From: Thermodesulfobacteriota bacterium
Lineage (GTDB): Bacteria > Desulfobacterota > Desulfarculia > Adiutricales > JAGVGV01
Direction of reading: 5' to 3'
Length of the DNA: 64,000 bases
NCBI GenBank assembly: GCA_040755515.1
Contig: JBFMAW010000023.1
Location: forward strand, 39,383-103,382
In this document: positions 2,852 through 31,123 of the stretch, piece by piece
Numbering within the stretch: the stretch's first letter is position 1
Layout: each line of letters begins with the position of its first letter
Translations under genes and position numbers: made by a program
The notes under the pieces: generated by a model
The model's database searches: none
What the model was told of the DNA's origin: nothing
What the model saw: the letters and a program-made list of their open reading frames with translations, nothing else

Positions 2852-3895
2852 TTACCAGTTTTCGGCTTCGGCCAGGTCCGGGTCAGTGCCCAGAGCAGCC
2901 TCGCGGTTGGCGCCCTCCCAATTGACGTGATCCATCAGGCTCCGGTGCAACTTGGTTCGATATAACCGGGCTGATCCGAAATCGGCCGCGGTCAGATCGG
3001 CGTGCGAGAAATCCGTATAGGCGCAGTTCGCGCCGATGAACAACGCTCCCTGGCAGAAGGCTCGCGTGAAGATGGCCTGCTCGATATCGGCCCTGGAGAA
3101 ATCAGCCCGCTTAAGCTTGCTTTTATCAAAGCAGGATTGATAAAGTCGGGCGTCCTTAAGGCTGGCCGCGGTCAGTGTGGTCTCGAGGAAGACGCTGCGT
3201 TTGCCTTTCACCGCGTCGAGCTTCGCCCCGGTCAGATCGGCGCCGGAAAAGTCGGATTGAGTGATATCCGCGCCGGTGAAGTCGCAGCCGGTGAAGTCCG
3301 CTCCACCGGCCTGGACCATGATGAATTCGGCGCCTCGGAAATCCTGTCCGGGCAGGCGACAATCCCGCAGAAAGGTCTTGTGCAATTTGCAGCCTTTGAG
3401 TCTGGCCCCGCTCAAGTCAGCTTCCATGAAGGTCGCCCTGGTCAGGTCCGCGCCGCTCAGATCCGCGTCAACCAAGGAAGCCTGGTAGAGTACCGTCCAG
3501 TTCAATACCGCTCCGGCCATGACGGCTTTATCCAGCCGGGCGTGATCCAATACGGCGCTGCTTAAGTCGGCCAGGGTAAGATCGGCGCCGGCCAGGTCCG
3601 CGCCGGTCAGGACCGCTTCGCGTAAAACCGCCTCTCGAAGAATGACCCCTTTGAGGTTCATCTTATGCCAGATGACTCCGGTCAGGTCCACTCCGGCCAT
3701 GATCGCCCCGAAGAGATCGCAGCCGGTAAAGCCGGTTCTTTGGATTTTGGCCACGGTGAAATTCACTTTTCTCAAGACCGTGTTCTCGAAGCGGCCGCCG
3801 GACAGGTCCGCGCCGGACAGATCGAGTCCGCTCAAGTCCACGTTCTCGATGGTGTCGTCGCGACGAATGGCGGCTAGGACTTCATCCCTGGTCAT
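2852..3895 (-). CDS. Pentapeptide-repeat protein
   Basis: 347 aa composed almost entirely of A(D/N)LxG / (S/T)GADL pentapeptide repeats (…VDLSGLDLSGADLSGGRFENTVLRKVNFT…ADLSGADLTRATFMEADLSGARL…). Start ATGA overlaps the stop of the upstream giant gene. Confidence 0.9.
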   Translation of the reverse strand: MTRDEVLAAIRRDDTIENVDLSGLDLSGADLSGGRFENTVLRKVNFTVAKIQRTGFTGCDLFGAIMAGVDLTGVIWHKMNLKGVILREAVLREAVLTGADLAGADLTLADLSSAVLDHARLDKAVMAGAVLNWTVLYQASLVDADLSGADLTRATFMEADLSGARLKGCKLHKTFLRDCRLPGQDFRGAEFIMVQAGGADFTGCDFTGADITQSDFSGADLTGAKLDAVKGKRSVFLETTLTAASLKDARLYQSCFDKSKLKRADFSRADIEQAIFTRAFCQGALFIGANCAYTDFSHADLTAADFGSARLYRTKLHRSLMDHVNWEGANREAALGTDPDLAEAENW

Positions 3896-6800
3896 GGCAG
3901 CAGGTCGGTCCGTTTATGCAGCTTGGTCATTTTAAGGTTGGCGCCATCGAGTTTGGTCCGGCCCAGCACGGACCGATGAAATTCAACGCCGTAAAGATTG
4001 GCGCCGGAAAAATCCGTGTCCACCAGTCTGGTCTTGCGCAGGGAACCATTTAAAAGGTTAATCCCCCGCAGGTCCCCCCCACTGAGGTCTGATTTGTTAA
4101 AGCTGGTCTGTTTGGCCTGGGTCCGGTTCAGGTTGGCTTGATGCAGGTCGCACTCCTCGATCAGGCTGCCTTCGAGGCGGGCGCCTCGGAAATCGGCCCG
4201 GTGCAACTCGGCCTGGCGCCAGCAGGCTTGGGACAAATCGGCGCCGGAGAAATCGGCGCCCGGCATCTCGGAGCCGCCGCCGATCCGGCTGTTGTGCATA
4301 TCCGTGTCGGTGAAATTGACTTCCCGGCCTTTCACCTGCCAGAAGAAGGCGGATCGGGCCTTCGCGCGGGAAAAGTCTGTCTTATCCAGTGCTGCTTCCG
4401 AAAAAAGCCCATGGCTTATATCCGCTCCGGCCAGGTTGGCCCCGGTAAGATCAGACGAGAGAAAGGAACCGCCATTGATTTTGGTATCATTCAGCCGGGC
4501 GTCTGACAGTTTCGCTCCTTCCAGAAGAGCACTTTCCATTTCGGCCCCTTGCAGATCGGCCGCGGTCAGGTCCGCGTTTTTCAGCAAGGCTTTCGTCATG
4601 GAAGAGCCGCTTAACACCGCTTTGGTAAACTTGGCTTGTTGAAAGAGCCCGCTGTCCAAACGGACGCCCTTTAACGAGGCCCCGGTGAAATCGGCCTCGT
4701 TGGCCACCGCCTCGGTCAGGTTGGCTCCATCGAGCTTTGAGCCGGCAAGGACGGTCTTTTCCAGAAAGGCTTCTTTTAAATCCAGGCCGGACAAGTCCAG
4801 GCCGGATAAATCGAGACCGGACAAGTTCTTGCCGGCCAGGCTTAGGCCTTGCTTATGGCGTTCGATCACATCTTCCCGGGTTAGAGGCTCCAGGTCATCC
4901 ACATCAATACCCGCTTTTTTAAGCTGTCCCAAGGCCCAGTCCGGGACGGGGGGCCGTGATTCGGCCTCGGCGATCCTGGCCATCCCGGCCTGGTATCTTT
5001 CCGCGGCCGCGCCGGTGACCCGCTTTATCTTGCCTTCGGCCTCGTCGAGTTTGGCCCAGACCTCGGGGTCTACCCGATCCACTTGTTTCAACTTTTCACG
5101 AGCCTGACCTAGGGAAGCGAGCATCGGCGCTGGGTCGAAAGGATTGTCGCCCAGGGCGACCTCTTTCCTGTCCAGGATCGTGTCCGGATTCAGGCCGGAT
5201 TTCCTGAGAGGTTCGTCGAATTTTTTCAGTTCCTGCTGGAAGTGGGCCTGCATCTCTTTTTTCATGGCCGCGATGTTTTCCAGCTCTGGTTTGAGGGCGG
5301 CGTCCACGCTGCCTCTTATTTTTTGATCCAGGGCTTGAACGTCAGGCAAGGGAAAATCTTGGGTGGCTTTTCTTTCTTGGCGCTCTTTTTCGATCAGGGC
5401 CAGTTCTTCCTCGATTTGGGTGGATAATTCCGGCGGGAGCGCGGCCAAAAGCCACGGTCTCAAGTCAAAACCGGTCCGGCGCGCCTCGAGCAGGTTCCGG
5501 CCCACGGGCAGGGGCAGGATTTTGGCTTGGGGATGAACATCGAGCCAGGCCGACAGTGTCTCGTCCACTTGTACTTCGGACCAGGCCGGCCCGGCGATCA
5601 GGAAAGCGCGGGCTGGCTCGATCAACTTGGCGGTTTCCTCGGCCGGCTTCCGGCTTGGATCCGGGGCCGCGATTATGGAGCAAAGGTCTGAAGCCTCTTG
5701 CCGGGCCAGCCAGGCCTCCAACTCGTCCGCCACCCGCAGGAAGACGTCAGGCCGTCGCGGGCTGATAAAGGTCAAAGCCAAGTCTTTCGATCCTTCGACC
5801 GGGAAATCAGTCCCGGCCTCGACCGCGTCACCGGTCCGGATAGTGATCCGGTCCAGGATGGCGCCGTCAAAATGAGGTATCACCAAGCCCGCCGGCAGGC
5901 GCTGATTCCTCGGCCGGCCCTGGTCGTCCCAGGCTTCTTTCAAACCCCAGGCGGATCGCGGTTCGGATAATTCCACCGGATTATAACCCAGCCAGGCCCG
6001 TCTGATGGTCTGGTGGGACAGGCCATGGGAGCGAAGTATTTTCATCAGTTCCTGGTTTTCCTGCAATCTCTGTCGGCAATCTTCCACGAAGCGGAAGCCT
6101 TGTTCCCGCCAGAGCTGATCCGGTTTAGGTTCGAAAAGCATGTCCGGTTCAAAACCCTCGGTCGGGATGCCTCTGGCTTCCAGTCGTTTCTTCTGCTCTT
6201 GGAAGGCCTTTTTAATTTCCTGTTGATGTTGAGTTATCTCGGCCTGGGCCTGGGCCACCTGGCCCGGAACTTCCTGAATGGCCGCGGCGGCCGCGGCCAG
6301 TTCACCCTGGGCCTCCTCGAGCATCGAGAGGTCTATTTTGATCAGGTGGCCGAATTCGGCCTTCAATTCAACGAGTCTCTTCCTGGCCTCGGCCAATCTA
6401 GTTGCCGCCTCGGTCATCTGCCCGGCGCCGCCGGCGGTCAGTTCCGATAAAGGCTGGGTGGAGGCCGGCGCCCGTCCCGCGGCCTCGGCCAAGGCCTCGT
6501 CGAGAAGTTGAGGTATTTTCTCCAGTTCGGCCCTGGCTGCCGCCAGCTCTTTTTCGGCCTGCTCCAAGGGGGTCATATCCACGGCCGGCACCGGCCATTT
6601 CATTCTTTCCTTTTCCAACTCGAGGTATTCTTCCAGGGTCCGGGGCGGGTCATGCAGTTTTTCCGTAAGCAGGAACAGCCGTCGGACGTCCGAGGCCTCG
6701 TCATCGGCCACTTCGGTCACGCCCCGGAAGATCAATACGCCCCGCCAGGCGTTGGGTAAGAGCCAGACCGTATCCAGGTTGGTCTTGACCTCCTTGAAGA

Positions 6801-7644
6801 CGGCGTCGGAAGGACTTCGCCTATCGTTCTTAAGTTGGGTGGCGAAACATTTCACCGCGACGCCGGGCAGGTGCGCCTTGATAAGGGGCCGGGCGTTGTT
6901 CATGTTTTCGATGAGCAGGGCTTCGTCGCCGCGCCAGAACCCGGTCAATCGTTGGTCCGGCGGCGCCGCGTTGAAAAAAGTATAGTCCATGTCCTCGGGG
7001 AAGTAAGGCCAGCGTTCCCTGAGCCATTTGGCGTCATATGTTCCCAGCTTACTCGATCTTTGCGGCCAGGTGATCTCGTACGGGCCGAAGCCGGCCGGAT
7101 TCGGCCGGTCCTCGGGCGAAGAGATCAAATGGCCGGGATCTTCCACGTTGGGCGCCAGGACCATAATTTCGCCCGAAGGCAGGCGGACGGGGTTGAGGCC
7201 CTTGCCCAGGGGGTTGCGCGGAAAGTCCGGACCGCCGAAAGCGTTGCGATAACCGACCTCGATGGCCTGAAACGGTTGGGGATCGCTCAGGGTCAGTAAA
7301 CCATTGGGACGGCGGCGCCAATGGCGACGGCCGAAGATGTAAAGACTCTTGTTGATGGGGCCGAGGCGCAAGGAAACTCTCAGGCCGGTAGTGGTCAGGC
7401 CGCCCGGAGCAAAGCACCGGCCCAGCATCAAAACTTCGCCTTGCGGCTTGGGCAGGCCTTGATCGAAGATGGTTTCCGCTCCCAGTTGGTCCTGAACGCA
7501 TGGCCATAGCTCCTGCTCCGGGAGCAGGTCGGCCGGCTCATTCAGATCGAAGAAGAGCAGGATCGAGACGGTCAGGTAGTATTTATCCGCCAGTCCGAAA
7601 TGATTGAGCAGCAGCGACTGGTCCTGTTCTTTTACCACTTCCAC
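3892..7644 (-). CDS. Giant DUF2169-domain protein fused to a coiled-coil linker and C-terminal pentapeptide-repeat domain
   Basis: 1250 aa. The N-terminal ~330 aa (…FPRNPLGKGLNPV…YDAKWLRERWPYFPEDMDYTFFNAAPPDQRL…) resembles DUF2169, a T6SS-associated adaptor-like domain. The middle ~550 aa is E/A/K/Q-rich with heptad character. The last ~340 aa are pentapeptide repeats (NLSGLDLSGLDLSGLDLKEAFL…ADLTAADLQGAEM…). Confidence 0.8.
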   Translation of the reverse strand: MEVVKEQDQSLLLNHFGLADKYYLTVSILLFFDLNEPADLLPEQELWPCVQDQLGAETIFDQGLPKPQGEVLMLGRCFAPGGLTTTGLRVSLRLGPINKSLYIFGRRHWRRRPNGLLTLSDPQPFQAIEVGYRNAFGGPDFPRNPLGKGLNPVRLPSGEIMVLAPNVEDPGHLISSPEDRPNPAGFGPYEITWPQRSSKLGTYDAKWLRERWPYFPEDMDYTFFNAAPPDQRLTGFWRGDEALLIENMNNARPLIKAHLPGVAVKCFATQLKNDRRSPSDAVFKEVKTNLDTVWLLPNAWRGVLIFRGVTEVADDEASDVRRLFLLTEKLHDPPRTLEEYLELEKERMKWPVPAVDMTPLEQAEKELAAARAELEKIPQLLDEALAEAAGRAPASTQPLSELTAGGAGQMTEAATRLAEARKRLVELKAEFGHLIKIDLSMLEEAQGELAAAAAAIQEVPGQVAQAQAEITQHQQEIKKAFQEQKKRLEARGIPTEGFEPDMLFEPKPDQLWREQGFRFVEDCRQRLQENQELMKILRSHGLSHQTIRRAWLGYNPVELSEPRSAWGLKEAWDDQGRPRNQRLPAGLVIPHFDGAILDRITIRTGDAVEAGTDFPVEGSKDLALTFISPRRPDVFLRVADELEAWLARQEASDLCSIIAAPDPSRKPAEETAKLIEPARAFLIAGPAWSEVQVDETLSAWLDVHPQAKILPLPVGRNLLEARRTGFDLRPWLLAALPPELSTQIEEELALIEKERQERKATQDFPLPDVQALDQKIRGSVDAALKPELENIAAMKKEMQAHFQQELKKFDEPLRKSGLNPDTILDRKEVALGDNPFDPAPMLASLGQAREKLKQVDRVDPEVWAKLDEAEGKIKRVTGAAAERYQAGMARIAEAESRPPVPDWALGQLKKAGIDVDDLEPLTREDVIERHKQGLSLAGKNLSGLDLSGLDLSGLDLKEAFLEKTVLAGSKLDGANLTEAVANEADFTGASLKGVRLDSGLFQQAKFTKAVLSGSSMTKALLKNADLTAADLQGAEMESALLEGAKLSDARLNDTKINGGSFLSSDLTGANLAGADISHGLFSEAALDKTDFSRAKARSAFFWQVKGREVNFTDTDMHNSRIGGGSEMPGADFSGADLSQACWRQAELHRADFRGARLEGSLIEECDLHQANLNRTQAKQTSFNKSDLSGGDLRGINLLNGSLRKTRLVDTDFSGANLYGVEFHRSVLGRTKLDGANLKMTKLHKRTDLLP

Positions 7645-7707
7645 GTTTATCGCCCTCCAAGGCCGATGCGCCGGGCCTCGTTGGTGATGGTGAAGAAGGC
7701 CTTGACT

Positions 7708-10700
7708 TCAACCAAGAATCACATTTCCCTTCAGGCAGGCTATTCTGAAATCAAACAAAGCCATATCGGTCTTATCGATGGCTGTCTTGTTTTGTCTGAT
7801 ATCGAGTTCGTTTTGATCAATCCTTTGATTGGTTCGCCGGATCGCGGTGGTGATTCTCCCGACGCGTGTGTTGAAGTCTTCCAGGCGTTGTTGGTGCATC
7901 CTCACGACCCGCTGGCCGAGTTCGATGTCTCTTTCAGCGGTATCCACACGTTCATTGGTAATTCTAATGTGTCTCCGAATGGCCCTGATTTGATTGGTGA
8001 AGACTCGAACATCTTGTTGGCCGGCCGTTATGGACTGTTCATGTGCCAAAACCATGTGGTTGGTGGCTTGCAAGTGGGTCTGCCAGGCGTTAATTCTATT
8101 GTCAATCGCCTCGATCTTTTTGTCCGAAGCGTTGAAGTGGCCGTTCTGCCACTCGTTGTGCCAGGCCAGGCTTCCTTCGAACTCGACGCCGATATGTATC
8201 TCCGAAGCCAGGCCGACCGTGAAGTAGCTCTCCCAGCCGCCGACGTACTGCATTTCTTCGCCATAGACCTTCCTGCTTTCCCCGGCTTCGATCTCCCAGT
8301 CGGCGAAAGAGCCGACCAGGCCCCGAAAGGCGCCCACGGTATGCATCTGAATTCCGTGTTTCCCTTCGCCGCCTTCGCCCTTCTCACCCTTTTCGCCCTT
8401 TTCGCCTTTTTCCCCTTTTTCGCCCGTAGCGCCGGTGGCGCCAGTGGGACCCCGGGCGCCCGTGGGTCCGATCGCGCCGGTGGCGCCTTTAGGTCCCAGA
8501 GGTCCGACCGGGCCGGTGGCGCCCTTTTCACCCTTCAGATCAACATAGGTGTAGTCAGCCTCATCAGACGTCTTCACTCCCAGGCGGGTGCCGTCCCATT
8601 TGTATTCAAAGTTGGCCCCGCGGTCGCCCTGATCGCCTTTGGCGCCCGGCGCCCCCGGCACTCCAGGCAGTCCTTGTTGACCGCGGTCGCCCTGGTCGCC
8701 CTTTGCTCCGGTTGCTCCACTGGCGCCGGTCGCACCGGTCGCACCGGTGGCGCCGGCGGGACCGGTTGGTCCAGCCGGTCCTGGAATACCCGGAGGGCCT
8801 GGCGGCCCTGGTTCGCCTTTTGCTCCGGCCTCGCCCTTTTCACCCGTGGGTCCGGTAGGCCCGGTCGCGCCGGCGGGGCCGGTTGGTCCTACGGCTCCGG
8901 CCGGTCCGGGAATACCCGGGGGTCCGATCGGTCCGGCTTCACCTTTTGCTCCGGCCTCGCCCTTTTCACCCGCGGGTCCGGTAGGCCCGGTCGCGCCGGC
9001 GGGGCCGGTTGGTCCTACGGCTCCGGCCGGTCCGGGAATGCCCGGAGGTCCGATCGGTCCGGCTTCGCCCTTGTCACCGCGGTCGCCCTTTTCGCCCAAC
9101 GGTCCTTGCGGTCCCGCTGGCCCCTGAGGTCCCGGAGGCCCCTGCGGCCCGGGGGGGCCTGGAGGTCCGGGCGGGCCGGGTTCTCCGTCTCCGGTGGGTG
9201 GGTCGTTGGGCGCGCCGATGCGAATCCAGGAGTTGGCCGTGGGCGACAACAGCACGATCCTTTGGCTGCCAGCCGCGTCTTCGATGTGTATCTTGTTCTG
9301 TCCGGCCGTGGTGATGATGTTCATGGTGCTGTTGTCGGCCGTGACCGGGCTGGGATACTCGGGGTTCGGCACCGCTCCGGTGATGATCGGCCGATCCGGG
9401 TCTCCCTCGATGAAGGTCAAAAGCACTTCCGTTCCTTTGTGCAGGGGGAAGTGCAGGCCGTGGTCCGAACCTCCGTAAGGTTGCATCATGCGCAGATAAG
9501 TCGAGGCCTTGCCGTCCTTCCGGCCCGAAAGATCAAAAGGCAGGACCACCTTATACCGGCCGTATTCGTCCAGTTCGGCGTATTCGCCGCTCGCGGCCGC
9601 GTCCACCACGGCGTTGATCACTCCGTAGAACCTTGGTTTTTCGCTGGCCAATTCGGCCCGGAACTGGGCCTGGGCCGGAATGGCCACAAACGAGTTGCGG
9701 TAATAGAGCTGCTGTTCTCGCTCGCTCAGAGCGCGCTTGAGGCCGTCTATCATGTACGCCGTCTGAGTGCCTTCATGCTCCATCTTGATGGTCAGGTACT
9801 TCTGATTGAAGTTTTCCTGATAATGATCCTGTAGCTCGAAGGTGTATCCTGGTCGGAGATAGGGCACCGCGCTCTCGCCGTAAAATTCGCGTTCCCGGCA
9901 GAGATAGGCTTCGGCTCGAACCTGGGCCAGCGTGTCGCCCTCTTCCGGGGTGAGGAAATGGTCGCCGTAAACGTAGATCTGCCCTCGGCCTTCAGGCAGG
10001 ATTCCGGCCCGGCCGGTCAGTTCGAGAGATGGCGTCAGGTAATTGTAATCCTTGAGCAGAACCTCTTGGGGCAGCATATGCTGGCGGCAGACATAAGATT
10101 GGATGACTTCCCGCATATGTCCGGCTTCCAAGCCGGAAGGGGGGGAATAGTAAAGAGTTCGACCTTGAGGCATGTCGGTGTGGGCGATGCCCGTATCGGT
10201 GATGATGACCTTTTCGGCGCCGGAGTCCTGTTCGAAGTAGTAATAGAGCCCTTGATGTTCGAGCCAGCGGGAGACGAAGTTCAGATGGCTTTCCCGGTAC
10301 TGGCTGACATATTCGAGTGATTGATAGGTCTTGGTGGTCTTTATCTCGAAATCCCGGGAAGTCAAGCCGCCGTCCTTGAGGACTTCGACTATTATGTCCG
10401 GCAGGTTCATCTTGAGGAATATCTGGTTATGGAAGGTCAGGGAGAGCCACCAGAGCCTGGGCGCCAGCACGGCCCGGTAAAAGACGTATTCGCCGAAGGC
10501 CTGCCGTTGTTCAAACCGGCTGAGAATGCCGTGAAAGGGCACGTCGCCTTCTTCGCGCCGGATGATGAAGGTGGCCGGCTTTTGTATTATCCGGCCCAGG
10601 TCCAGGTCCCGGCGGTCCGAGACCAGGTCAATCTCGAAGTGGTAGCACTGATTCAAGCCTTCGCTGCCTTTGAAGCTGACCACGTCAAAGGCGTCGGTCG

Positions 10701-10749
10701 GCAGGGCCTGGGAGACAAAGGCGAATTTTTCTTCGGTGATGAACCTCAT
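7708..10749 (-). CDS. vgrG: T6SS spike protein VgrG with long collagen-like (Gly-X-Y) triple-helix extension, a globular C-terminal domain and a terminal coiled coil
   Basis: 1013 aa. Classic VgrG gp27/gp5 core (…[48 protein letters not shown]…). About 230 aa of uninterrupted GXY repeats follow ([25 protein letters not shown]…). Then a ~35-aa non-collagen spacer, a second GXY block ending in (GEK)5, a ~130-aa globular region, and a ~100-aa heptad-like C-terminus. Confidence 0.9.
8695..9072. repeat. Tandem 126-bp (42-aa, 14 GXY triplets) direct repeats inside the vgrG collagen-like region: two near-identical units at 8821-8946 and 8947-9072, plus a more diverged third copy upstream
   Basis: The string tgctccggcctcgcccttttcaccc… recurs at 8821 and 8947. 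The two units differ at only a handful of positions, and the encoded peptide …[32 protein letters not shown](A/T)[11 protein letters not shown]… is duplicated. A 9-bp (cccttttcg)n microsatellite encoding (GEK)5 lies at ~8385-8432. Confidence 0.8.
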
Positions 10750-14608: not shown

Positions 14609-15010
14609 ATGATCGACTTGGTCAAATGGTTTAAAAGGCTCTTCCGGAACAACCGCCGCCAGCATAAGCGGTACAAGGTTCTGGATCAAGCCTACTGCGT
14701 CATCGGCTCGGACCCGGCCGAAGGCGAAAGGATGCGCCTGCTGGACATAGGCGAAGGCGGATTGGCCATGGCCTATGCCTTTTCGGACCCATTGATCCAG
14801 AAGACGGGCGAAATAAGCCTCATGGCCGGCGACAAGGTATATATCAAAAATGTCCTGGTCGAAACCATCACCGATCTGGAGATCAAGGATCTGTCCGAGA
14901 CCATGGTCACCATGAGGCGCCGGGGAGTACGTTTTAAAAGGCTTAAAAACGTGGATAAGAAACACCTGATGGATTTTATTAAAAACTGTACGGTTTGCGG
15001 GCCGGATTAG
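14609..15010 (+). CDS. Single-domain PilZ protein (c-di-GMP binding)
   Basis: RRQHKRYKV (RxxxR motif) and DIGEGGLAM (D/NxSxxG motif). Confidence 0.75.
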   Translation: MIDLVKWFKRLFRNNRRQHKRYKVLDQAYCVIGSDPAEGERMRLLDIGEGGLAMAYAFSDPLIQKTGEISLMAGDKVYIKNVLVETITDLEIKDLSETMVTMRRRGVRFKRLKNVDKKHLMDFIKNCTVCGPD

Positions 15011-15111
15011 GCGTCATTGTCTTGAACCCGAAGAGTGGCCGTTCAGATCGAATATTGATATAATATAATTGTATTCTTTCCCAGGCTCCTTAGTACGCCG
15101 GGAGATGTTCA

Positions 15112-15498
15112 ATGAGGACCGGCAGAGGACTGATCAGCCGGCTGATTAAACCCAGGCGCTTCAAACGTTTTCAAGCCAGGGACGGCGCCTTCGTTATCTT
15201 GGGTTCATCGCCCGCCCGTGGTCCAAAGTTAAAGATTCTGGATATAGGTCAGGGTGGTCTTTCCTTTCTATACCAGGGCAACCCCGCGGAACAGGAATAC
15301 CACGGTCAGCTCAGCCTCATGGCCGGAAGGGGACTCTACCTGGATTACGTGCCCTTCGAAGCCGTATCCGACGTTGGTCTGAGCGAACTGACGGGTCAGG
15401 AAAGCCCGTGGCGGCGCCGCAGCATACGCTTCAAGCAATTGGGATATCTGGACGTCAGGCAGCTTCGGGAGTTCATTCGCCGTCACTGCCGCTTCTGA
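15112..15498 (+). CDS. Single-domain PilZ protein, tandem paralog of the previous gene
   Basis: PRRFKRFQ (RxxxR) and DIGQGGLSF (DxSxxG); same architecture and length as the upstream PilZ. Confidence 0.75.
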   Translation: MRTGRGLISRLIKPRRFKRFQARDGAFVILGSSPARGPKLKILDIGQGGLSFLYQGNPAEQEYHGQLSLMAGRGLYLDYVPFEAVSDVGLSELTGQESPWRRRSIRFKQLGYLDVRQLREFIRRHCRF

Positions 15499-23355: not shown

Positions 23356-25128
23356 ATGAACAAGAAAGTGTTTTTTATTGTATTGGCGCTTCTTATTATT
23401 TACCCCGCCGCCTCATGGGCCAGGGACTGGTATGTCCGGCCGGCCGGCGGCCAGTACGGAACACAAGACGGCACCAGCTATGACAACGCCTGGAACGGCC
23501 TGCACGCGATCAAATGGCTCGAGGGCGGCGTGCAGCCGGGCGACACCTTGTGGGTCTGCGGCCTGCATGTTTGGGATATGAAGACCAAGTCCTACATTGA
23601 CAAACAGGCGGTCATTCCAACGATCAACGGCGCGAGCGATACCCAGAGAATCATGATCCGGGGCGACTATTCTAACGATCCGGGCATTGTCTGGGGTGCG
23701 TACAGAATGAGCAGTTCTCCCTGGGTGGACGAGGGCGGAGGAGTGTGGAGTACCCTTCTTGCGGCCAATTCATTTCCTGAATGGTTCTTCCAGGATATCG
23801 GTAAACCAAAACCGGATTCCTATATTGTTCTGAACAGGCAAAAAAGCATTGACGGCGTCCGAGCCAATCCCGGGTCGTTTTACAGTGAAACCTATACCGC
23901 GGGTTCCAAGCTATACGTTAAAACTACTGACAGCCTGCCACCTCAAGGACGAATTTACGCTAACAGATACGGGTATAGATTCAACCTGGCGGATAATAAA
24001 TTTATAACTTTTTATAAGCTGAAAATGTTTAATTTCTTTCGTATATCCGGGATAAAACCCGTTTCCCCTCCCAGCAATATTACTTGGCAGGGCTGCACCC
24101 TGACTCATGGTGAACACAGTATCATATGGCTCTATGATGGCATGGATAATATGAAAGTCATTGACTGCGAACTGGCTTGGGCCGGAAACGGCATTTACAA
24201 CATCAGTAGTACTCTGGACAAAGCGGCCAGCAATTACCACTTCAAAGGTAATTATATCCATGACATGGGCGTCCGGGAAGCCACCCAGAACAACGATGGC
24301 CATTGCGTCGGGGCTCAAGGAGGGCGGAACGGAATCATAGAGGATAACGTTTGCGTAAACTGCGGTACCGGGCCATTGATTTACACTGGCGCCAGCCAGA
24401 TCGCCACCAACAACATTATCAGAAGGAACCTGGTCAAGGACCCGCATACGCTCGGCGGCGCCAATGGATACGGAATAGCTTTGCTGACCACCAACCTGAA
24501 TACTTCCGACAAGAGCGGCAATATAGTGGTCCAAAATATAGTCATCAACGCGAAGATAGCCTTCAGGTTTCATTGGGAACAGGTTCAACTCGTGGCTAAC
24601 AACGTGGCTTATAATTGCGAAATAGGCCTGGAGTCAAAGCGTAACTACAATGGTCTAGGGGCCAATGTCTATTTTGTCAATAACGTGTTTTTGAACACCA
24701 AGCAATATCACATCAACTGGGACACGGGCGCAAGTAATTTCGTTATATACGCCGACCGTAACATTTATTATCCGTCAACGGGTGCCATGTTCAGGTATAG
24801 GGGAAAGGACTATACTTGGGATGGTTGGCGCGCCTTGACCCGCCCGTCTTGCCTGTTTGACCCGAAGTCCTTCGCTTTGGACCCGAAATTTAAGAACATC
24901 ACGGGCAAGTTCACTGACGCTTTGGACTTCATGTTAAAAAGCGACTCGCCAGCCATTGGTACCGGACAGACGGTCCAGGTAATCACTAGTGATTTTGCCG
25001 GCGGGCCTATCCTGGGCACGCCGGATATCGGCGCTTTTCAGCATACCACGATTCCGCGGGGAGGTATTTCCGCCACTGCGCCAGGGTCGGGACCAATGCC
25101 TGCCCCAGGAGTGCCTGGCACTCCTTGA
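23356..25128 (+). CDS. Secreted right-handed beta-helix protein (possible polysaccharide lyase/depolymerase or EPS-modifying enzyme)
   Basis: Signal peptide MNKKVFFIVLALLIIYPAASWA. The region after the signal peptide (WYV…GG…G.S…) is typical of pectate-lyase-fold proteins, and Asn-rich beta-helix rungs are present (NNVAYNCE…NNVFLNTK). Confidence 0.6.
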   Translation: MNKKVFFIVLALLIIYPAASWARDWYVRPAGGQYGTQDGTSYDNAWNGLHAIKWLEGGVQPGDTLWVCGLHVWDMKTKSYIDKQAVIPTINGASDTQRIMIRGDYSNDPGIVWGAYRMSSSPWVDEGGGVWSTLLAANSFPEWFFQDIGKPKPDSYIVLNRQKSIDGVRANPGSFYSETYTAGSKLYVKTTDSLPPQGRIYANRYGYRFNLADNKFITFYKLKMFNFFRISGIKPVSPPSNITWQGCTLTHGEHSIIWLYDGMDNMKVIDCELAWAGNGIYNISSTLDKAASNYHFKGNYIHDMGVREATQNNDGHCVGAQGGRNGIIEDNVCVNCGTGPLIYTGASQIATNNIIRRNLVKDPHTLGGANGYGIALLTTNLNTSDKSGNIVVQNIVINAKIAFRFHWEQVQLVANNVAYNCEIGLESKRNYNGLGANVYFVNNVFLNTKQYHINWDTGASNFVIYADRNIYYPSTGAMFRYRGKDYTWDGWRALTRPSCLFDPKSFALDPKFKNITGKFTDALDFMLKSDSPAIGTGQTVQVITSDFAGGPILGTPDIGAFQHTTIPRGGISATAPGSGPMPAPGVPGTP

Positions 25129-25446
25129 GGCCTGAACCGTTGCCGAGAGGTGTAGTATAAAGCCGACGGCCGTGAGAGCGGTTCGGTACAGAGGAAGAGT
25201 TATTGGAATACGGAGTGGATCAGGCTGAATAAATTATTAATCTTTGTGCTTCTATATTGTGTAGGCATGGAATAGACTTAGTTCTTAAGAAATGGAAGCA
25301 GTTTCATCGGGGTCAAGGCCGAATCCTTAATCAACTTACGCCCCTTGACTCCGATTTTTATTTTGACCGGAAGCCACGAGGCCTCATGACCTTTATAGAG
25401 GCTAAATCAGCATAATTTCGCTCTTGAGGTAAATGGAGGTGGTGTT

Positions 25447-26589
25447 TTGGGGTATAATATTTTGGAAACCAAATCGTTTGTTACGGAAGAAAATGAAAGC
25501 GTGGTGACAATAAAATTTACTATTGATGCTAATGAGCATACTGTCTATTTTAAGAGTAAGCAGATCCGATTGCAGGATAGCGCGGAAGCTCTTCTGAATT
25601 TTTCAATTCTGCCAAATCTTTATGCTGGTAGTAATTTGAGATTGAATAGACCGATTAGCCGACGGTTATGTAATTCTACCAAGAAGATAATAGATATATT
25701 CTGTAAATGGAATCCAAAATATAACTACGTCGAAATTATTGATGCCGTCCCGGGTAGAACGGAAGATCAGGTTGAACGGAGAGTTGGAGTCTTTTTTTCC
25801 ACCGGGTTAGATTCGATATATACGCTGCTAAAGAATTTACATGAAATTACCGACATGATCTTCATTCATGGTTATGATTTGCGAATTAGCGAGATTGACT
25901 TGAGAAAAAAAACATCCGACATAATAGAACAGATTGGAAGAGAATTTAATAAAAATGTAATTCATGTAGAGACAAATTTAAAGGATGTGTTGGGACAATA
26001 TATCCCCTGGGCCAAGCTTTTACACGGAGCCGCGTTGACTACTATTGGACATATGATGTCACGGCATTTCAGGAAAATATTTATTTCGGCTAATCATACT
26101 TATGCTAATCTTCAACCAAATGGAGCTCATCCTATACTTGATCCCCTGTGGAGTACGGAATCTCTCGAGTTTGAGCATTTCGGCTGCGAGGCAGATAGAA
26201 TAGAGAAAGCTGCTTATATTGCTCAATTCGAAATTGCTTTAAATTCCCTGAGAGTTTGCTGGAAAAAAACAGGTGGGGCCTATAACTGCGGCGAATGCAA
26301 CAAGTGTCTTATTACAATGATTAACTTATATTTGGCAGGCGCATTAGATCGTTGTTCCACATTTGATAAGAAGATAAGTTATTGGAAAATGAAAATGGAA
26401 CTGAACTTCATGCCAGAGGGTTGGCGAGCATACGTAAGGCAAAACATAGATCATCTGGAAAAAACCAATAGTGATAAGAAAATGTTAAAAGCCTTAAGAA
26501 AGATATATAACAGAACTATTTGGGGGTGTTACTTTATAGCTGCTATCAAAAAGGCAGGCATGTTGTATGAAAAATACAAAAAAAGATAG
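25447..26589 (+). CDS. Uncharacterised enzyme-like protein, paralog A: PP-loop-like motif (…GVFFSTGLDS…) plus C-terminal Cys cluster (CWKKTGGAYNCGECNKC)
   Basis: 380 aa. The beta-strand-STGxDS-helix arrangement at ~aa 115 resembles the SGGxDS PP-loop of ATP pyrophosphatases (QueC/WbpG/LarE class) with Gly replaced by Thr. A CxxC-containing Cys cluster is present. TTG start with GGAGG 8 nt upstream. Confidence 0.55.
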   Translation: MGYNILETKSFVTEENESVVTIKFTIDANEHTVYFKSKQIRLQDSAEALLNFSILPNLYAGSNLRLNRPISRRLCNSTKKIIDIFCKWNPKYNYVEIIDAVPGRTEDQVERRVGVFFSTGLDSIYTLLKNLHEITDMIFIHGYDLRISEIDLRKKTSDIIEQIGREFNKNVIHVETNLKDVLGQYIPWAKLLHGAALTTIGHMMSRHFRKIFISANHTYANLQPNGAHPILDPLWSTESLEFEHFGCEADRIEKAAYIAQFEIALNSLRVCWKKTGGAYNCGECNKCLITMINLYLAGALDRCSTFDKKISYWKMKMELNFMPEGWRAYVRQNIDHLEKTNSDKKMLKALRKIYNRTIWGCYFIAAIKKAGMLYEKYKKR

Positions 26590-26639
26590 GAAAAGAAATA
26601 AAATTATACAAAAAAATCTATATATATGGATAGGCAAGA

Positions 26640-28247
26640 ATGAAAGATATTGAAGCACAGGATAACAATGGTGCATCAAACAGAAAGATAAGCGATAAAA
26701 TTAAGATAAGTAAATCGCTGATAATGATAAATTCCGGTAGTTTTATGTTAGCATTTTTGTTGAACATTACCGTCGTCGTTTGGCTACAGCAGTATTTACT
26801 AAAAAGAATTTCGGTGGATGAATATAGCATTTATCCTATAGTTGTTTCAATGATGGTCTTTATATCTTTATTAGAAACAATATTAGTCCCGAGTTTAGTT
26901 AGATATGCGATAGAAGCATTCGCCGTTGGTGATGAAAAGCGGTTAAATCAGGTGTTTTCAACCATGTTATCGCTAACATCCTTTTCCGGAATAGCGATAT
27001 TGTCGGGTGGGATTATATTTTCATGGTATATTGATAGCATTTTCAACATAGCTTCACATCTTGCTTGGGATGCGAGAATCATGATGGCCTTGTTGATTTT
27101 GAATATAAGCGCCGACATTATATTGTCCCCTTATAGAGTTGGATTGAATATACAACAGAAGTATTACCTTATGAATATAATTAAATCACTAGGAGAATTT
27201 TTTCGTTTATTAATTCTATTTGTTCTTTTATTTTCTATAAGCACTAGGATATTATGGGTAGTAGTAGCTACCATAATTAGCAATATAAGTGTTATATTAG
27301 CAAAAGTATACTATTCTCAAAAAGCGATGCCCGGGTTAAGATTTAACAAAAAGGATATTAGGGTCGACCTCTTAAAGAAAATGTTGAATTTTGGCGGTTG
27401 GAATTTCATGTATATGGCAGGCAGGACAATAAGAAATAATTCTGATGTAATAATACTAAACAAGTTTGCCACGGCTTATGATGTCAGCGCGTTTCATATT
27501 GGCAGATTGTTCCATAGATATGCACTTATGAGTTGGGAAATGATACGACTTTCAACTTTTCCTGCCCTGACGGCCATGCACTCTCTTAAAATGGAACAGA
27601 GTCTCAAAAACGCTTATCTACGTGGCGGCAGGTATGCTTTGTGGATAGTGCTTTTTATCGGCGCTCCCCTAGTTGCCTTTAGAGAGGAAGTTATTATATT
27701 ATATTTATCGGAAAAATTTGTAGTTTCAGCTCAAGTACTATTATATTTATTTTTAGCTCTTCCCGCTGAATTAAGCGATATAATGTTAAGTATCATTGCG
27801 AGAGCTAGAGGAAGAATGAAAGAGTTGGCGACGATATACTTGATTATGCAGATAGCAAATATCATACTTACGTTGTACCTTGTCATCGCCTTGAAATCAG
27901 GCTGCGTGGGTTCGGCATTCGGCACTTTCATAACGGCACTAATTTTTGAACCATTGTTTCTTTGGCCGATCGGATTGAAATTGGTAAATCTTTCTCTGAT
28001 GAGATTCATAAGAGAAACAGTCATTCCAGGTATTATACCGGCGTCAGCGGTGGGGTTGTTATATTATGTAATAAAGACACAATTTGAAGTATTAACATTT
28101 ACGCACATTATTGAATGGGTAGCCATCGGTAGTTTAGTTTATACTGGTGTTTTATTCGGATTCTGTTTACAAGCAAGCGATAAAAAAGATTTAGCGGAAG
28201 CTTATATGAAAATACGAGAGATGATATATAGAAAGTTAAGGAGGTGA
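26640..28247 (+). CDS. Oligosaccharide/polysaccharide flippase (Wzx-like, MOP superfamily)
   Basis: 535 aa with ~14 predicted TM helices; size and composition match Wzx/MurJ-type 'polysaccharide biosynthesis protein'. Sits in a glycan locus. Confidence 0.75.
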   Translation: MKDIEAQDNNGASNRKISDKIKISKSLIMINSGSFMLAFLLNITVVVWLQQYLLKRISVDEYSIYPIVVSMMVFISLLETILVPSLVRYAIEAFAVGDEKRLNQVFSTMLSLTSFSGIAILSGGIIFSWYIDSIFNIASHLAWDARIMMALLILNISADIILSPYRVGLNIQQKYYLMNIIKSLGEFFRLLILFVLLFSISTRILWVVVATIISNISVILAKVYYSQKAMPGLRFNKKDIRVDLLKKMLNFGGWNFMYMAGRTIRNNSDVIILNKFATAYDVSAFHIGRLFHRYALMSWEMIRLSTFPALTAMHSLKMEQSLKNAYLRGGRYALWIVLFIGAPLVAFREEVIILYLSEKFVVSAQVLLYLFLALPAELSDIMLSIIARARGRMKELATIYLIMQIANIILTLYLVIALKSGCVGSAFGTFITALIFEPLFLWPIGLKLVNLSLMRFIRETVIPGIIPASAVGLLYYVIKTQFEVLTFTHIIEWVAIGSLVYTGVLFGFCLQASDKKDLAEAYMKIREMIYRKLRR

Positions 28248-29413
28248 ATGCCTTGAGTTTCAATGTTCAGAATGTTAGGACGTTCACCACGCAAGAAGGC
28301 GCCAATGAGGTTGCGCTTGACCTTAACATTGAAAAAGAGATACATCACATTTATTTTAGAAGTGAGAATATAACTCTATTTGATTGCCCAGAGGCTGAAG
28401 TCGCACTCTCCCTACTTTGGCACTTAAAATTCGGAATAGACTTGTCGGTTGATAGATGTGTAAGCAAGCGTTTCCTGGATTCAATGGAACGAGTGATGGA
28501 TATTTATAACACCTGGGATCGCAGCTTAAATCGTATCCGGATAAATACAAAAGAAACCTGCATAAAAGAGAATATAGGATCTGGTAGAGTCGGTTTATTC
28601 TTTTCTACCGGAATAGATTCCTTGTTTACTTTATTGAAGAATCTTGATGAGATCAATGATTTAATTTTTATCCATGGATTTGACTTACGATTAGACGAAA
28701 TTGAATTGAGAAATAAGACTTCTGATATTATAGAAAATATAGGTAAAGAATTCAAGAAAAACGTGATACATATAGAAACCAATTTCCGAGAACGACTTGG
28801 AGATCACTTCTCGTGGGCCAAAATTATGCACGGAGTTACCCTGGCGACGGTGGGACATTTAATATCTCGACACTATAAAAAGATATACATTTCCGCGAAT
28901 CACACTTACGCAAATCTACACCCGGCTGGGGCTCATCCTATCCTTGATCCGCTATGGAGCACCGAATCAACTGAATTCGTTCATTATGGCTGCCAGGCAG
29001 ATAGAATTGAAAAGGCGGCGTTAATCGCGCAATATCCTACGGCCTTAAATTCAATCCGAGTATGCTGGAAAAAAACCGGTGGAGCCTATAATTGCGGAGA
29101 GTGTAACAAATGCGTAAACGCCATGACAAACTTATATTTGGCTGGAGCCTTAGATCATTGTTCCACTTTTAGTAATAAAATAAATTATCGAAAAATGAAA
29201 ATGGCCTTAAACTTTTTAACGGAAGGTGGAAAAGCTTTTGTAATGCAAAATATTTCATATATAGAACGAAACAACGGTGATAAAAAATTGTTGAAAGCTT
29301 TAAAAAAGATACACGATAGACCTTTGTGGAAATGCTATTTTATAGCGGCGATAAAAAAGACAAATATGATTTATGAAACAATGTTAAAAAGAAAGAATAT
29401 AGATCTTAGATAA
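28244..29413 (+). CDS. Uncharacterised enzyme-like protein, paralog B (~70% identical to paralog A over the C-terminal ~270 aa; divergent N-terminal ~110 aa)
   Basis: …VGLFFSTGIDSLFTLLKNLDEINDLIFIHGFDLR…ISANHTYANL…GAHPILDPLWSTES…RVCWKKTGGAYNCGECNKC… aligns colinearly with paralog A. The start overlaps the wzx stop. Confidence 0.55.
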   Translation: MNALSFNVQNVRTFTTQEGANEVALDLNIEKEIHHIYFRSENITLFDCPEAEVALSLLWHLKFGIDLSVDRCVSKRFLDSMERVMDIYNTWDRSLNRIRINTKETCIKENIGSGRVGLFFSTGIDSLFTLLKNLDEINDLIFIHGFDLRLDEIELRNKTSDIIENIGKEFKKNVIHIETNFRERLGDHFSWAKIMHGVTLATVGHLISRHYKKIYISANHTYANLHPAGAHPILDPLWSTESTEFVHYGCQADRIEKAALIAQYPTALNSIRVCWKKTGGAYNCGECNKCVNAMTNLYLAGALDHCSTFSNKINYRKMKMALNFLTEGGKAFVMQNISYIERNNGDKKLLKALKKIHDRPLWKCYFIAAIKKTNMIYETMLKRKNIDLR

Positions 29414-29692
29414 AATATTTATGGAAATAAAGTTCTCCAAAAAAATCAATTCGATTACGAGGCCAATATTTTCGTATATTAAGATCAAGTTCAACATAAA
29501 TATTGGATTAGAAAATGAAACATTTATAGAGAAGTTTAAAGGTAACGAATATGAATAAATGAGGATGTTACATGTAATCGGTAAAGATAACGGTTTCATA
29601 GCTATGTAAAAAGCATTATACAGTATAAACATGAAAAAAATATTGAATAAATCGCGCGAGAGAATATTTTTATAAACAAGAGGAATGGTATT

Positions 29693-31123
29693 TTGACCGG
29701 ACACGACCGGAACCTGGAAGCGTTCATATCTCCACGATCGGTGGCGGTCATAGGCGCCACCGAAAGACCTGGCTCCTGGGGATCGTTCATCATGTTAGGC
29801 CTGAAGTCCCTGGATTATAACGGAGATATATTCCCAGTGAATACGAGCGCCAGCGAAATTTATGGCCTACCAGCGTACAAAGACATACGGGAAATAAGCG
29901 GACCCGTGGATCTGGCCGTGCTAGCCATTCCAGAAGAATATGTAGAGACGGCTATAGAAGCCTGCGGTCAAAAAGGCGTTAAAGGAATAACGATTATCAC
30001 GGCAGGGTACGGAGAGGAATCTGAAGAAGGAAGGGAGCGGCAACGACATCTGGCCCGATTGGCCGCCTTAAATGACCTGCGCGTTCTTGGTCCAAACGTG
30101 AGCGGCACGTTCAATCTTCACGCCGGCTTCAATGCCTCCTCGACGCCAGGCCATGATCTTCTGGCCACGCCGGTCGCGGCCGTATGTCAGGGCGGGTACG
30201 CCTTCTACGACATGCTTTCGGTGGGCGGAGAGCAAGGCTACGGCGTGGGTTGGTTCATCCACACCGGGAACGAAGCTGACCTGACCATCACGGATTTTCT
30301 GGAGCACTTCGGCCGAAAGGACGAGGTCAAGGCAGTGGTCATGTACATCGAGACCGTTCGGGACGGACAGCACTTTCTGGACGCGGCCAGGGCCGCGGCG
30401 GCGAAAAAGCCGGTGCTGGTATATAAAGCCGGCCGCACGGCCGGTTCGGCCCGAGCCGCCCGCAGTCATACAGGCGCCCTGGCCGGTAACAAAGACATAT
30501 ACCAGGGACTGTTCAGGCAGACCGGCCTGGTCATGTGTCCAACCATGGAACTGCTGTTGCCCGCGGCTCATGCCCTGATCGAACGTCCAGCCATGCGCGG
30601 ACGGCGAGTGGGCATCATCACCGTGGGCGGATCGTGGGGCGTATCCCTGACCGACGCCCTGGAGGAAACCGGGCTGCTGGTCCCCGAATTCAGCCCCGGG
30701 TTGCAAGAAACCTTGCGGGAGAAGGGATTGCCGGAGCGGGCTTCGGTAAGGAATCCCGTGGATTTCGGAGCATCGGGTCTGTTCCTGTCCCAGGACACGC
30801 CGGGTCTCCTGGCCCGGGAAATCCTGGCTTCCGGCGAAGTGGACGCCCTGGTGGCGCACGGCCTCGGCCGGCCGGGACTACATGATCGGAACACGCCGGA
30901 CGAATGGAAGTTGTTCCTGGAGATCGAAAAGAACCAGGTGAGGAGCCTGGCCGCCCTGGAGAAAGAGTTCGATCTGCCGGTCCTGATAGGCAGTTATTAC
31001 CACCCCTGGCAAAGCCAGGCGGTCAGCGACCTGAACAAGGAAGGATATAGAATTTATAATCGCCTGGTGGAGACGGCGCAAATATTGTTGATGATGAGCG
31101 AGTACTGGAGCCGGCGCCGTTGA
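29693..31123 (+). CDS. CoA-binding acyl-CoA synthetase (NDP-forming)-like protein / acetate-CoA ligase alpha-domain family
   Basis: …PRSVAVIGATERPGSWGSFIM…GDIFPVN… (CoA-binding Rossmann, succinyl-CoA-synthetase alpha-like) and …VKAVVMYIETVRDGQHFLDAARAAAAKKPVLVYKAGRTAGSARAARSHTGALAG… (ligase-CoA domain). Confidence 0.7.
   Translation: MTGHDRNLEAFISPRSVAVIGATERPGSWGSFIMLGLKSLDYNGDIFPVNTSASEIYGLPAYKDIREISGPVDLAVLAIPEEYVETAIEACGQKGVKGITIITAGYGEESEEGRERQRHLARLAALNDLRVLGPNVSGTFNLHAGFNASSTPGHDLLATPVAAVCQGGYAFYDMLSVGGEQGYGVGWFIHTGNEADLTITDFLEHFGRKDEVKAVVMYIETVRDGQHFLDAARAAAAKKPVLVYKAGRTAGSARAARSHTGALAGNKDIYQGLFRQTGLVMCPTMELLLPAAHALIERPAMRGRRVGIITVGGSWGVSLTDALEETGLLVPEFSPGLQETLREKGLPERASVRNPVDFGASGLFLSQDTPGLLAREILASGEVDALVAHGLGRPGLHDRNTPDEWKLFLEIEKNQVRSLAALEKEFDLPVLIGSYYHPWQSQAVSDLNKEGYRIYNRLVETAQILLMMSEYWSRRR

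Follow-up and report, generated by a model that had tools for sequence, protein, structure and literature searches.

A predicted collagen-like stalk within a VgrG spike protein carries an in-frame 126-bp tandem duplication

We analyzed a 64,000-nucleotide stretch of contig JBFMAW010000023.1 from an uncultured Thermodesulfobacteriota bacterium of sulfate-reducer type (the whole stretch is called the window below, and all coordinates are positions in it). The subject is a vgrG gene on its minus strand, which starts with an ATG codon preceded by GGGGGAGG and contains a long collagen-like region with tandem repeats. Its product was matched in Pfam by Phage_GPD (PF05954, E = 3.4e-78), the OB-fold family Phage_base_V (PF04717, E = 1.1e-08), and Collagen (PF01391, E = 1.4e-37) and in NCBIfam by TIGR03361 (353.9 bits, cut-off 186.35) and TIGR01646 (289.5 bits, cut-off 121.8). 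By these domain criteria, the product is predicted to be a spike protein, VgrG/TssI, of a type VI secretion system (T6SS). A pairwise comparison of its N-terminal hub with the collagen-free homologue P0001 gave 60% identity across aa 1-521.

Past the conserved GAPNDPP junction at the end of the hub, the protein continues as two runs of collagen-type Gly-X-Y (GXY) triplets separated by a short interruption (Table 1). A preliminary description of this DNA had placed the repeats inside a vgrG collagen stalk, and the placement held: in a protein identified as VgrG by TIGR03361, the Pfam Collagen model scored 127.7 bits (cut-off 27.2) over five stretches, and the glycine periodicity showed no break within either run, giving 64 plus 19, or 83, triplets. 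Segment 1 is 23% proline and 13.5% charged residues and has nine K/R-G-E/D motifs; segment 2 ends C terminally in (GEK)5(GEG)2. The NCBIfam models SclB, SclA, and Lcl scored 118, 103, and 97 bits against cut-offs of 325 to 500, and since these scores fall below the cut-offs, the protein was not assigned to those collagen-like families. Two plus-strand ORFs that cover parts of the same DNA (7600-9834, 744 aa, and 8747-9127, 126 aa) were dismissed as antisense by-products of the GXY frame; they are rich in Gly, Pro, Ala, and Arg and have no family matches.

In a pairwise alignment, the tip module that follows the collagen at the C-terminal end shared 26% identity with the corresponding module of P0001 (E = 9e-26). 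It is patterned in a/d heptads that contain no proline and has weak matches to coiled-coil families. A single-sequence, single-chain AlphaFold2 model of the tip was of low confidence over aa 797-855, the first ~59 residues, and gave one long helix spanning aa ~839-1012, with predicted local distance difference test (pLDDT) values of 88 to 97 for aa ~877-1006. VgrG hubs are trimers. The collagen region is thus flanked by a hub of trimeric type on its N-terminal side and by a predicted long heptad helix, a putative trimerization domain, on its C-terminal side. At the textbook rise of 0.286 nm per residue, segment 1 would measure ~55 nm and segment 2 ~16 nm, if they are triple-helical.

Table 1. 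Features of the vgrG gene and of the genes downstream of it, with positions in the window
Feature	Position	Strand	Residues	Remarks
vgrG coding sequence	7708-10749	minus	1013 aa	3042-nt open reading frame (ORF), from the ORF list
VgrG hub	9199-10749	minus	aa 1-517	gp27-like, gp5 OB-fold, and short beta segment; conserved GAPNDPP junction at end
Collagen-like segment 1	8611-9186	minus	aa 522-713	64 unbroken GXY triplets; regular expression, composition, Pfam Collagen
Unit A, 126 bp	8947-9072	minus	aa 560-601	
Unit B, 126 bp	8821-8946	minus	aa 602-643	
Diverged block C	8695-8820	minus	aa 644-685	
(GAT)3 9-bp tract	8725-8754	minus		Within block C; 23-nt perfect period-9 tract at 8726-8748
Peptide encoded twice, 63 nt apart	8680-8709 and 8617-8646	minus		Identical peptide, 5 synonymous differences
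Non-GXY interruption	8533-8610	minus	26 aa	Phage tail-fibre repeat motif
Collagen-like segment 2	8362-8532	minus	aa 740-796	19 GXY triplets, 28% charged
(GEK)5	8380-8424	minus		GGC GAA AAA; GGG GAA AAA; GGC GAA AAG (twice); GGT GAG AAG
(GEG)2	8362-8379	minus		Directly after (GEK)5
C-terminal tip module	7711-8361	minus	aa 797-1013	217 aa; beta-rich ~45-75 aa, then heptad repeats
DUF2169, long central region, and pentapeptide protein (TvpAB-like)	3892-7644	minus	1250 aa	DUF2169 E = 2.6e-82, Pentapeptide E = 1.8e-49; MEW6265910.1
Pentapeptide-repeat protein (TvpB-like)	2852-3895	minus	347 aa	Pfam Pentapeptide E = 4.4e-62
DUF3540 protein (TvpC-like)	2174-2827	minus	217 aa	DUF3540 E = 6.1e-55; MEW6265908.1
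Small DUF4150/Tox-PAAR-like protein	1724-2131	minus	135 aa	PF13665 E = 1.3e-35; VPVPYPN (PIPY-type motif); MEW6265907.1

By far the strongest tandem repeat of the window, as scored by Tandem Repeats Finder (TRF), lies in segment 1 (8770-9097, period 126, 2.6 copies, score 509). At its core are units A and B, which the preliminary description had called a near-perfect 126-bp tandem duplication (8821-8946 and 8947-9072), and rightly so: they are identical at 121 of 126 positions (96.0%). The five differences (9070/8944, 9067/8941, 9046/8920, 9040/8914, and 8973/8847) comprise four synonymous third-position changes and one nonsynonymous change, Ala593 (GCG) versus Thr635 (ACG). Because the unit was only 0.44 to 0.60 identical to the collagen-coding region at every other in-register 9-nt offset, as against 0.96 between A and B, this match is not a by-product of GXY composition. 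The longest perfect tracts common to the two units measure 66, 31, and 20 nt. Each unit begins at a codon boundary, and the GXY phase is the same in both, so that a change in copy number would add or remove whole triplets with no frameshift, as had been proposed; one unit corresponds to 42 residues, or ~12 nm if triple-helical.

To set the duplication in time we compared synonymous divergence. By the Nei-Gojobori method, units A and B differ by 0.113 synonymous substitutions per synonymous site (dS; 4 differences over 38 sites, an estimate that rests on four substitutions and has a rough 95% range of 0.03 to 0.3) and by 0.011 nonsynonymous substitutions per nonsynonymous site (dN; 1 difference over 88 sites), with a dN/dS ratio of ~0.1. 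Between either unit and block C, dS was about 1.1, which is saturated. Equal divergence at synonymous sites had been named in the preliminary description as the mark of an array that is ancient throughout; the divergence found is unequal, and because dS is 0.11 between A and B as against about 1.1 for the other blocks, the A/B duplication, or its last homogenization, is judged to be much more recent than the remaining array, though not fresh.

The remaining repeats were less regular than they had first seemed, although their periods (126, 63, 27, and 9) are all multiples of 9, as the preliminary description had stated. What had been described as a third, more diverged copy upstream of the pair is block C, which is upstream on the plus strand yet downstream in the reading direction of vgrG. 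It is 66 to 67% identical to the unit overall, which breaks down into 78% over the 51 nt adjoining unit B (8770-8820) and 57% elsewhere; the 51 nt are thus related to the unit, whereas the remainder is at background, and block C is best called a weak partial relic. A (GEK)5 9-bp microsatellite had been placed at 8385-8432. The peptide run is present but lies at 8380-8424 (TRF, 8374-8425, period 9, 81% matches), and in its DNA it is no genuine microsatellite, with four spellings among five 9-mers, only two adjacent units identical, and a longest perfect period-9 tract of 20 nt (8387-8406). With perfect tracts of 20 and 23 nt, respectively, neither (GEK)5 nor (GAT)3 qualifies as a slippage-prone simple-sequence contingency locus. 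Both (GEK)5 and the peptide that is encoded twice 63 nt apart have been kept as peptide while their DNA spelling has been scrambled, and because of this scrambling (GEK)5 and the other short repeats are poor substrates for slippage. Glycine codon usage is also more mixed in the stalk than in the hub. Codon scrambling together with mixed glycine codons is the pattern expected if repetitiveness at the DNA level is not maintained. A phase-variable frameshift switch was considered and ruled out, since the tracts are imperfect and all periods are divisible by 9.

We compared the protein with its best 120 VgrG homologues, mostly from metagenome-assembled genomes (MAGs) of Thermodesulfobacteriota or “Deltaproteobacteria.” These are 58 to 66% identical to it over the hub half only, and most are 740 to 780 aa long. 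Their layout is an R[IM]GAPNDPP motif, an acidic or low-complexity linker of 12 to 40 aa, a beta-rich stretch, and heptad repeats, and in 59 of 82 scorable homologues the extension past the junction is 220 to 260 aa long. Here it is 496 aa, made up of the 217-aa tip module and a 279-aa collagen cassette. Among the best 120, only P0038 (candidate division CSSED10-310, 993 aa) has a GXY run at the GAPNDPP junction. Its hub is 58% identical to that of the present protein and the run begins a few residues past the same motif, but it counts only 14 triplets, the C-terminal domain is a different one, and there is neither an interruption motif nor a large tandem duplication. Scans of genome and metagenome collections yielded 17 VgrG-core ORFs from related loci, none with a true GXY run; the other ~90 loci recovered were unrelated collagen-like genes drawn in by the EKGDRGDK pattern. 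From these comparisons, the collagen cassette appears as an insertion at a hypervariable linker junction between the hub and the tip of a VgrG subfamily. As regards the linker itself, locus L003 (5818-10612) has (GGE)n and (SG)n linkers at the GAPNDPP junction, and several homologue loci have two or three vgrG paralogues in tandem.

No orthologue of this vgrG above 66% identity was found in the protein, genome, and metagenome collections, the closest matches in the genome and metagenome scans being 58% and 50% identical, respectively. The tip module had no orthologues either; a query made of the tip plus the interruption returned a single match, P0121, which was confined to the 36-aa motif. 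A HMMER search with the hub-collagen junction against representatives was uninformative on the frequency of such fusions, as the best 150 matches were all long collagen-like or tail-fibre proteins that gained their scores over many stretches, and 0 of the 10 matches beginning in the hub part was a VgrG. A tblastn search of plasmids with the same junction gave no match, and a search of the available literature found no paper joining VgrG and a collagen-like domain in one protein.

Near-perfect tandem repeats as such are common in the C-terminal rods of the homologues. Repeats of 14 or 28 aa occur in the heptad rods that form the C-terminal 100 to 150 aa of P0002, P0003, and P0013, and in P0002 and P0003 they are 97.5% identical over 40 aa. 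The repetitiveness of the family does not imply that length varies freely, because the rods keep to 220 to 260 aa in 59 of the 82 homologues despite the repeats.

The interruption between the two GXY runs points to where the cassette came from. Its motif is 75% identical over 36 aa to P0121, which is phage-like and unannotated, and 48% identical to tail-fibre proteins of Clostridioides difficile siphophages, one of which (phiCD111 CEK40295.1) carries it as a tandem repeat. The family phrog_17587 spans the interruption, and the cassette as a whole matches many PHROG tail-fibre families. These matches point to an origin of the collagen cassette in phage tail fibres. With collagen-like tail fibres (phiCD111 CEK40295.1; PHROGs 6320, 5073, and 17587), which are trimeric fibres on the baseplate of contractile or noncontractile tails, the protein shares both GXY runs and the pattern [EF]-x-W-x-GT-x-LGV...Y-x-Y-x-DLKG-x-KG. 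The likeness has limits, however: the identity is modest (48%, or 75% to P0121) and restricted to the 36-aa motif, and here the cassette stands in line with a VgrG hub and is followed by a VgrG-family tip rather than a receptor-binding head.

Directly downstream of vgrG and on the same strand lie genes for a DUF2169-pentapeptide protein, a pentapeptide-repeat protein, a DUF3540 protein, and a small DUF4150 protein (Table 1). The Class III Tvp accessory system consists of a fusion of TvpA (DUF2169) to pentapeptide repeats, a separate TvpB, a DUF3540 TvpC, and a small DUF4150 PAAR protein (Monlezun et al. 2026, PMC13373197), and by gene content the genes downstream of vgrG match this composition. 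The cognate VgrG of such a system has a long beta-prism tip, onto which PAAR and Tvp proteins fit; over aa 797-855, where the tip begins here, the model was of low confidence. The neighbourhood also agrees with the strict co-occurrence of DUF2169, VgrG, and DUF4150 described by Sachar et al. (PMC11883445). In Serratia marcescens, VgrG1 is accompanied by the same downstream gene set (TvpAB, TvpB, TvpC, and Paar1) and likewise has a C-terminal extension with no recognizable toxin; according to its description, however, it lacks collagen and its beta-prism is exceptionally long (PMC13373197), whereas the present protein has a 279-aa collagen cassette between hub and tip, and its last ~135 to 170 residues are predicted to be helical. 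No T6SS core genes were found within the 64-kb window, which otherwise holds ordinary chromosomal genes, and by its content the locus is an orphan vgrG island. In the absence of core genes from the window, it is the accessory genes alone from which we infer that a T6SS uses this VgrG.

In the TvpAB-like protein, a central stretch of ~600 aa separates DUF2169 from the pentapeptide repeats. We considered whether this protein had been extended together with the VgrG stalk and ruled this out: a 1303-aa DUF2169-pentapeptide ORF follows a collagen-free VgrG at locus L004, so that 1250 aa is normal for the family. At the beginning of the pentapeptide-repeat domain of this gene, and thus in the same operon as vgrG, a 15-bp tandem repeat (4781-4826, minus strand, 3.1 copies) encodes LSGLD-LSGLD-LSGLD in frame. 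The window also encodes, at 175-1719 and 23356-25128, two proteins that are predicted to be secreted and have choice-of-anchor Q domains. The first, whose gene comes directly after that of the PAAR-like protein, also has an InlB B-repeat-like domain and a Gly-rich tail, and it could be cargo or be unrelated.

Elsewhere in the window, the region 24000-30000 is an island of low G+C content (0.36 to 0.45, against about 0.58 elsewhere). Three of its ORFs (25447-26589, 26640-28247, and 28244-29413) have no Pfam or NCBIfam match. The island adjoins Wzz-like, UDP-glucose dehydrogenase, and epimerase genes and was probably acquired by horizontal transfer, as a segment for surface polysaccharides. Two adjacent ORFs at 48298-51869 (847 aa and 343 aa) match no Pfam family, the first being weakly similar to aminopropyltransferases. 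Two small paralogous ORFs at 14609-15498 (133 aa and 128 aa), between an HD-domain gene and cydB, encode LDIGEGGLAM and LDIGQGGLSF and look PilZ-like by eye.

What the analysis shows outright is the repeat and its reading frame, how far its copies have diverged, how the domains are arranged, and which genes lie around vgrG. Taken together, these findings make it probable, in our judgment, that the cassette forms a collagen-like trimeric stalk at the hub-tip linker of a T6SS VgrG and that the 126-bp repeat is an in-frame duplication of 14 triplets, probably arisen from older similar blocks. Three chains would be held in register by the trimeric hub and the C-terminal coiled coil and would fold as a collagen triple helix, with Pro-rich GPP-type triplets stabilizing its N-terminal end and KGE/KGD ion pairs adding to its stability, above all in the terminal (GEK)5. 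As regards the duplication route, a 42-residue block was most probably duplicated when older blocks, already similar, recombined unequally or slipped during replication; block C would be the relic of such a block. The duplication would have lengthened the stalk by ~12 nm if the stalk is triple-helical, and the copies would since have drifted apart, mainly at synonymous sites. In systems of RecA-dependent and slippage-mediated rearrangement, perfect tracts of 66, 31, and 20 nt are enough for further unequal exchange. The A/B copies could thus plausibly undergo further exchanges in which 42 residues are gained or lost, and such steps, though possible, would probably be infrequent.

Several points weigh against parts of this account. 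The confidence range of the A/B dS is wide, as noted above, and four of the five differences fall within the first 33 nt of the unit, a clustering that may reflect a later conversion tract rather than uniform drift. The source is a MAG, in which an identical third copy could have been collapsed, so that two copies are a lower bound. A second sequence of this vgrG was not found in any collection searched, and the window has none of the core genes of a T6SS.

The preliminary description went further and saw in the repeats an active hotspot, at which the 126-bp units, and to a lesser degree the 9-bp runs, would be gained and lost within the population, the stalk varying in length as the collagen-like regions of BclA, Scl, and Bucl do. 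We regard this as possible but on balance doubtful. It would be consistent with tandem copies that are 96% identical and share a 66-nt perfect tract, with periods that are all multiples of 9, with the recurrence of near-perfect tandem repeats in the C-terminal rods of VgrG homologues, and with the precedent of Bucl proteins, whose collagen-like regions show significant length polymorphisms (PMC4565658). An A/B dS of ~0.11, on the other hand, implies long coexistence without loss or homogenization; the 9-bp runs are codon scrambled, with longest perfect tracts of 20 to 23 nt; and rod length is narrowly distributed across the family despite its repeats. Any present-day polymorphism of stalk length would accordingly be a matter of inference, and strains could not be compared because all protein clusters checked from the contig (proteins MEW6265906-MEW6265949) are singletons, and the nearest relative of its GcvPA is 69% identical.

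That collagen-like genes can vary the length of their fibres through in-frame expansion of repeats is well known. BclA of the exosporium nap filament of Bacillus anthracis/cereus, Scl1/Scl2, Bucl, and Lcl resemble the present protein in having a GXY region built from tandem DNA repeats next to a trimerizing flank, and in all of them in-frame gain or loss of triplets changes the length of the fibre; in BclA the number of triplets is strain specific (PMC10470788). Those proteins differ from the one described here in three respects. Their polymorphism is documented, whereas the present stalk is known from one sequence; they are surface-anchored adhesins or filaments, whereas here the collagen is an insert in the spike of a secretion system; and they have many short units, whereas here there are two copies of a long, 126-bp unit.

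It is improbable that the region is merely a flexible, low-complexity linker with no rigid triple helix, in which the duplication would amount to neutral drift in the length of a spacer. Homologues do have unstructured-looking (GGE)n, (SG)n, and acidic stretches at the same junction. A linker of this kind is hard to reconcile, however, with 83 triplets lacking any break in glycine periodicity, a proline content of 23%, and many KGE/KGD pairs, or with a peptide that has been kept while its codons were scrambled and a dN/dS ratio of ~0.1 between A and B. The region also has trimerizing domains on both sides, the C-terminal one by prediction, and recombinant bacterial collagens of such composition fold without hydroxyproline.

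We give similarly little credence to a nonfunctional chimera, that is, a collagen cassette from a phage tail fibre lodged in an orphan vgrG that has fallen out of T6SS use. The tail-fibre affinity of the cassette and the lack of core genes in the window would fit it, as would the expectation that the baseplate and membrane complex of a canonical T6SS could hardly accommodate a fibre of ~90 nm. Yet the ORF runs intact over 3042 nt behind a good Shine-Dalgarno sequence, a complete and intact accessory set lies downstream, and there is a signal of purifying selection both between the duplicated blocks and between the repeated peptides. Moreover, it is common for vgrG islands to lie as orphans far from the core cluster.

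Least credible of all is an assembly artefact, in which the units would be misjoined strain variants of a single unit or a longer array that had been collapsed: tandem repeats are a classic problem of assembly, the contig is from a MAG, and the VgrG protein is missing from the protein collection in which both neighbouring proteins are present, but the two copies differ at five positions and share no exact tract longer than 66 nt, so that k-mers or reads of more than about 70 nt resolve them, the join preserves both the reading frame and the GXY phase exactly, with the diverged third block carrying the array on, and the NCBI numbering leaves a slot for vgrG (MEW6265911-916, six accessions for the six ORFs between DUF2169 and cydB).

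If the trimeric stalk that we favour is functional, a bolder and rather unlikely extension of it would make the spike a very long trimeric fibre, with ~55 plus 16 nm of collagen and ~20 to 25 nm of coiled coil between the hub and the tip. The tip and its PAAR-like/Tvp cargo might then, ahead of firing, be threaded through the envelope or exposed beyond it, or they might serve as a tethered, long-reach harpoon; duplication of blocks would tune the stalk in steps of 42 residues, or ~12 nm, and phage tail fibres would be the source from which its cassette was captured. Such a fibre would exceed the thickness of the Gram-negative envelope and far exceed the space that is usually assumed to lie between the baseplate and the membrane complex.

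The duplication alone is ordinary; what is unusual is a rigid-looking collagen stalk of 83 triplets between the hub and the conserved tip module of a VgrG whose gene is followed by a full Class III Tvp set. Should such a protein function, the question would be how a T6SS baseplate and membrane complex house, load, and fire a fibre spike of ~90 nm, and the locus would be a natural case of a spike whose reach could be changed in 12-nm steps. It would also document that T6SS spikes and phage tail fibres exchange modules, with GAPNDPP as the defined junction.

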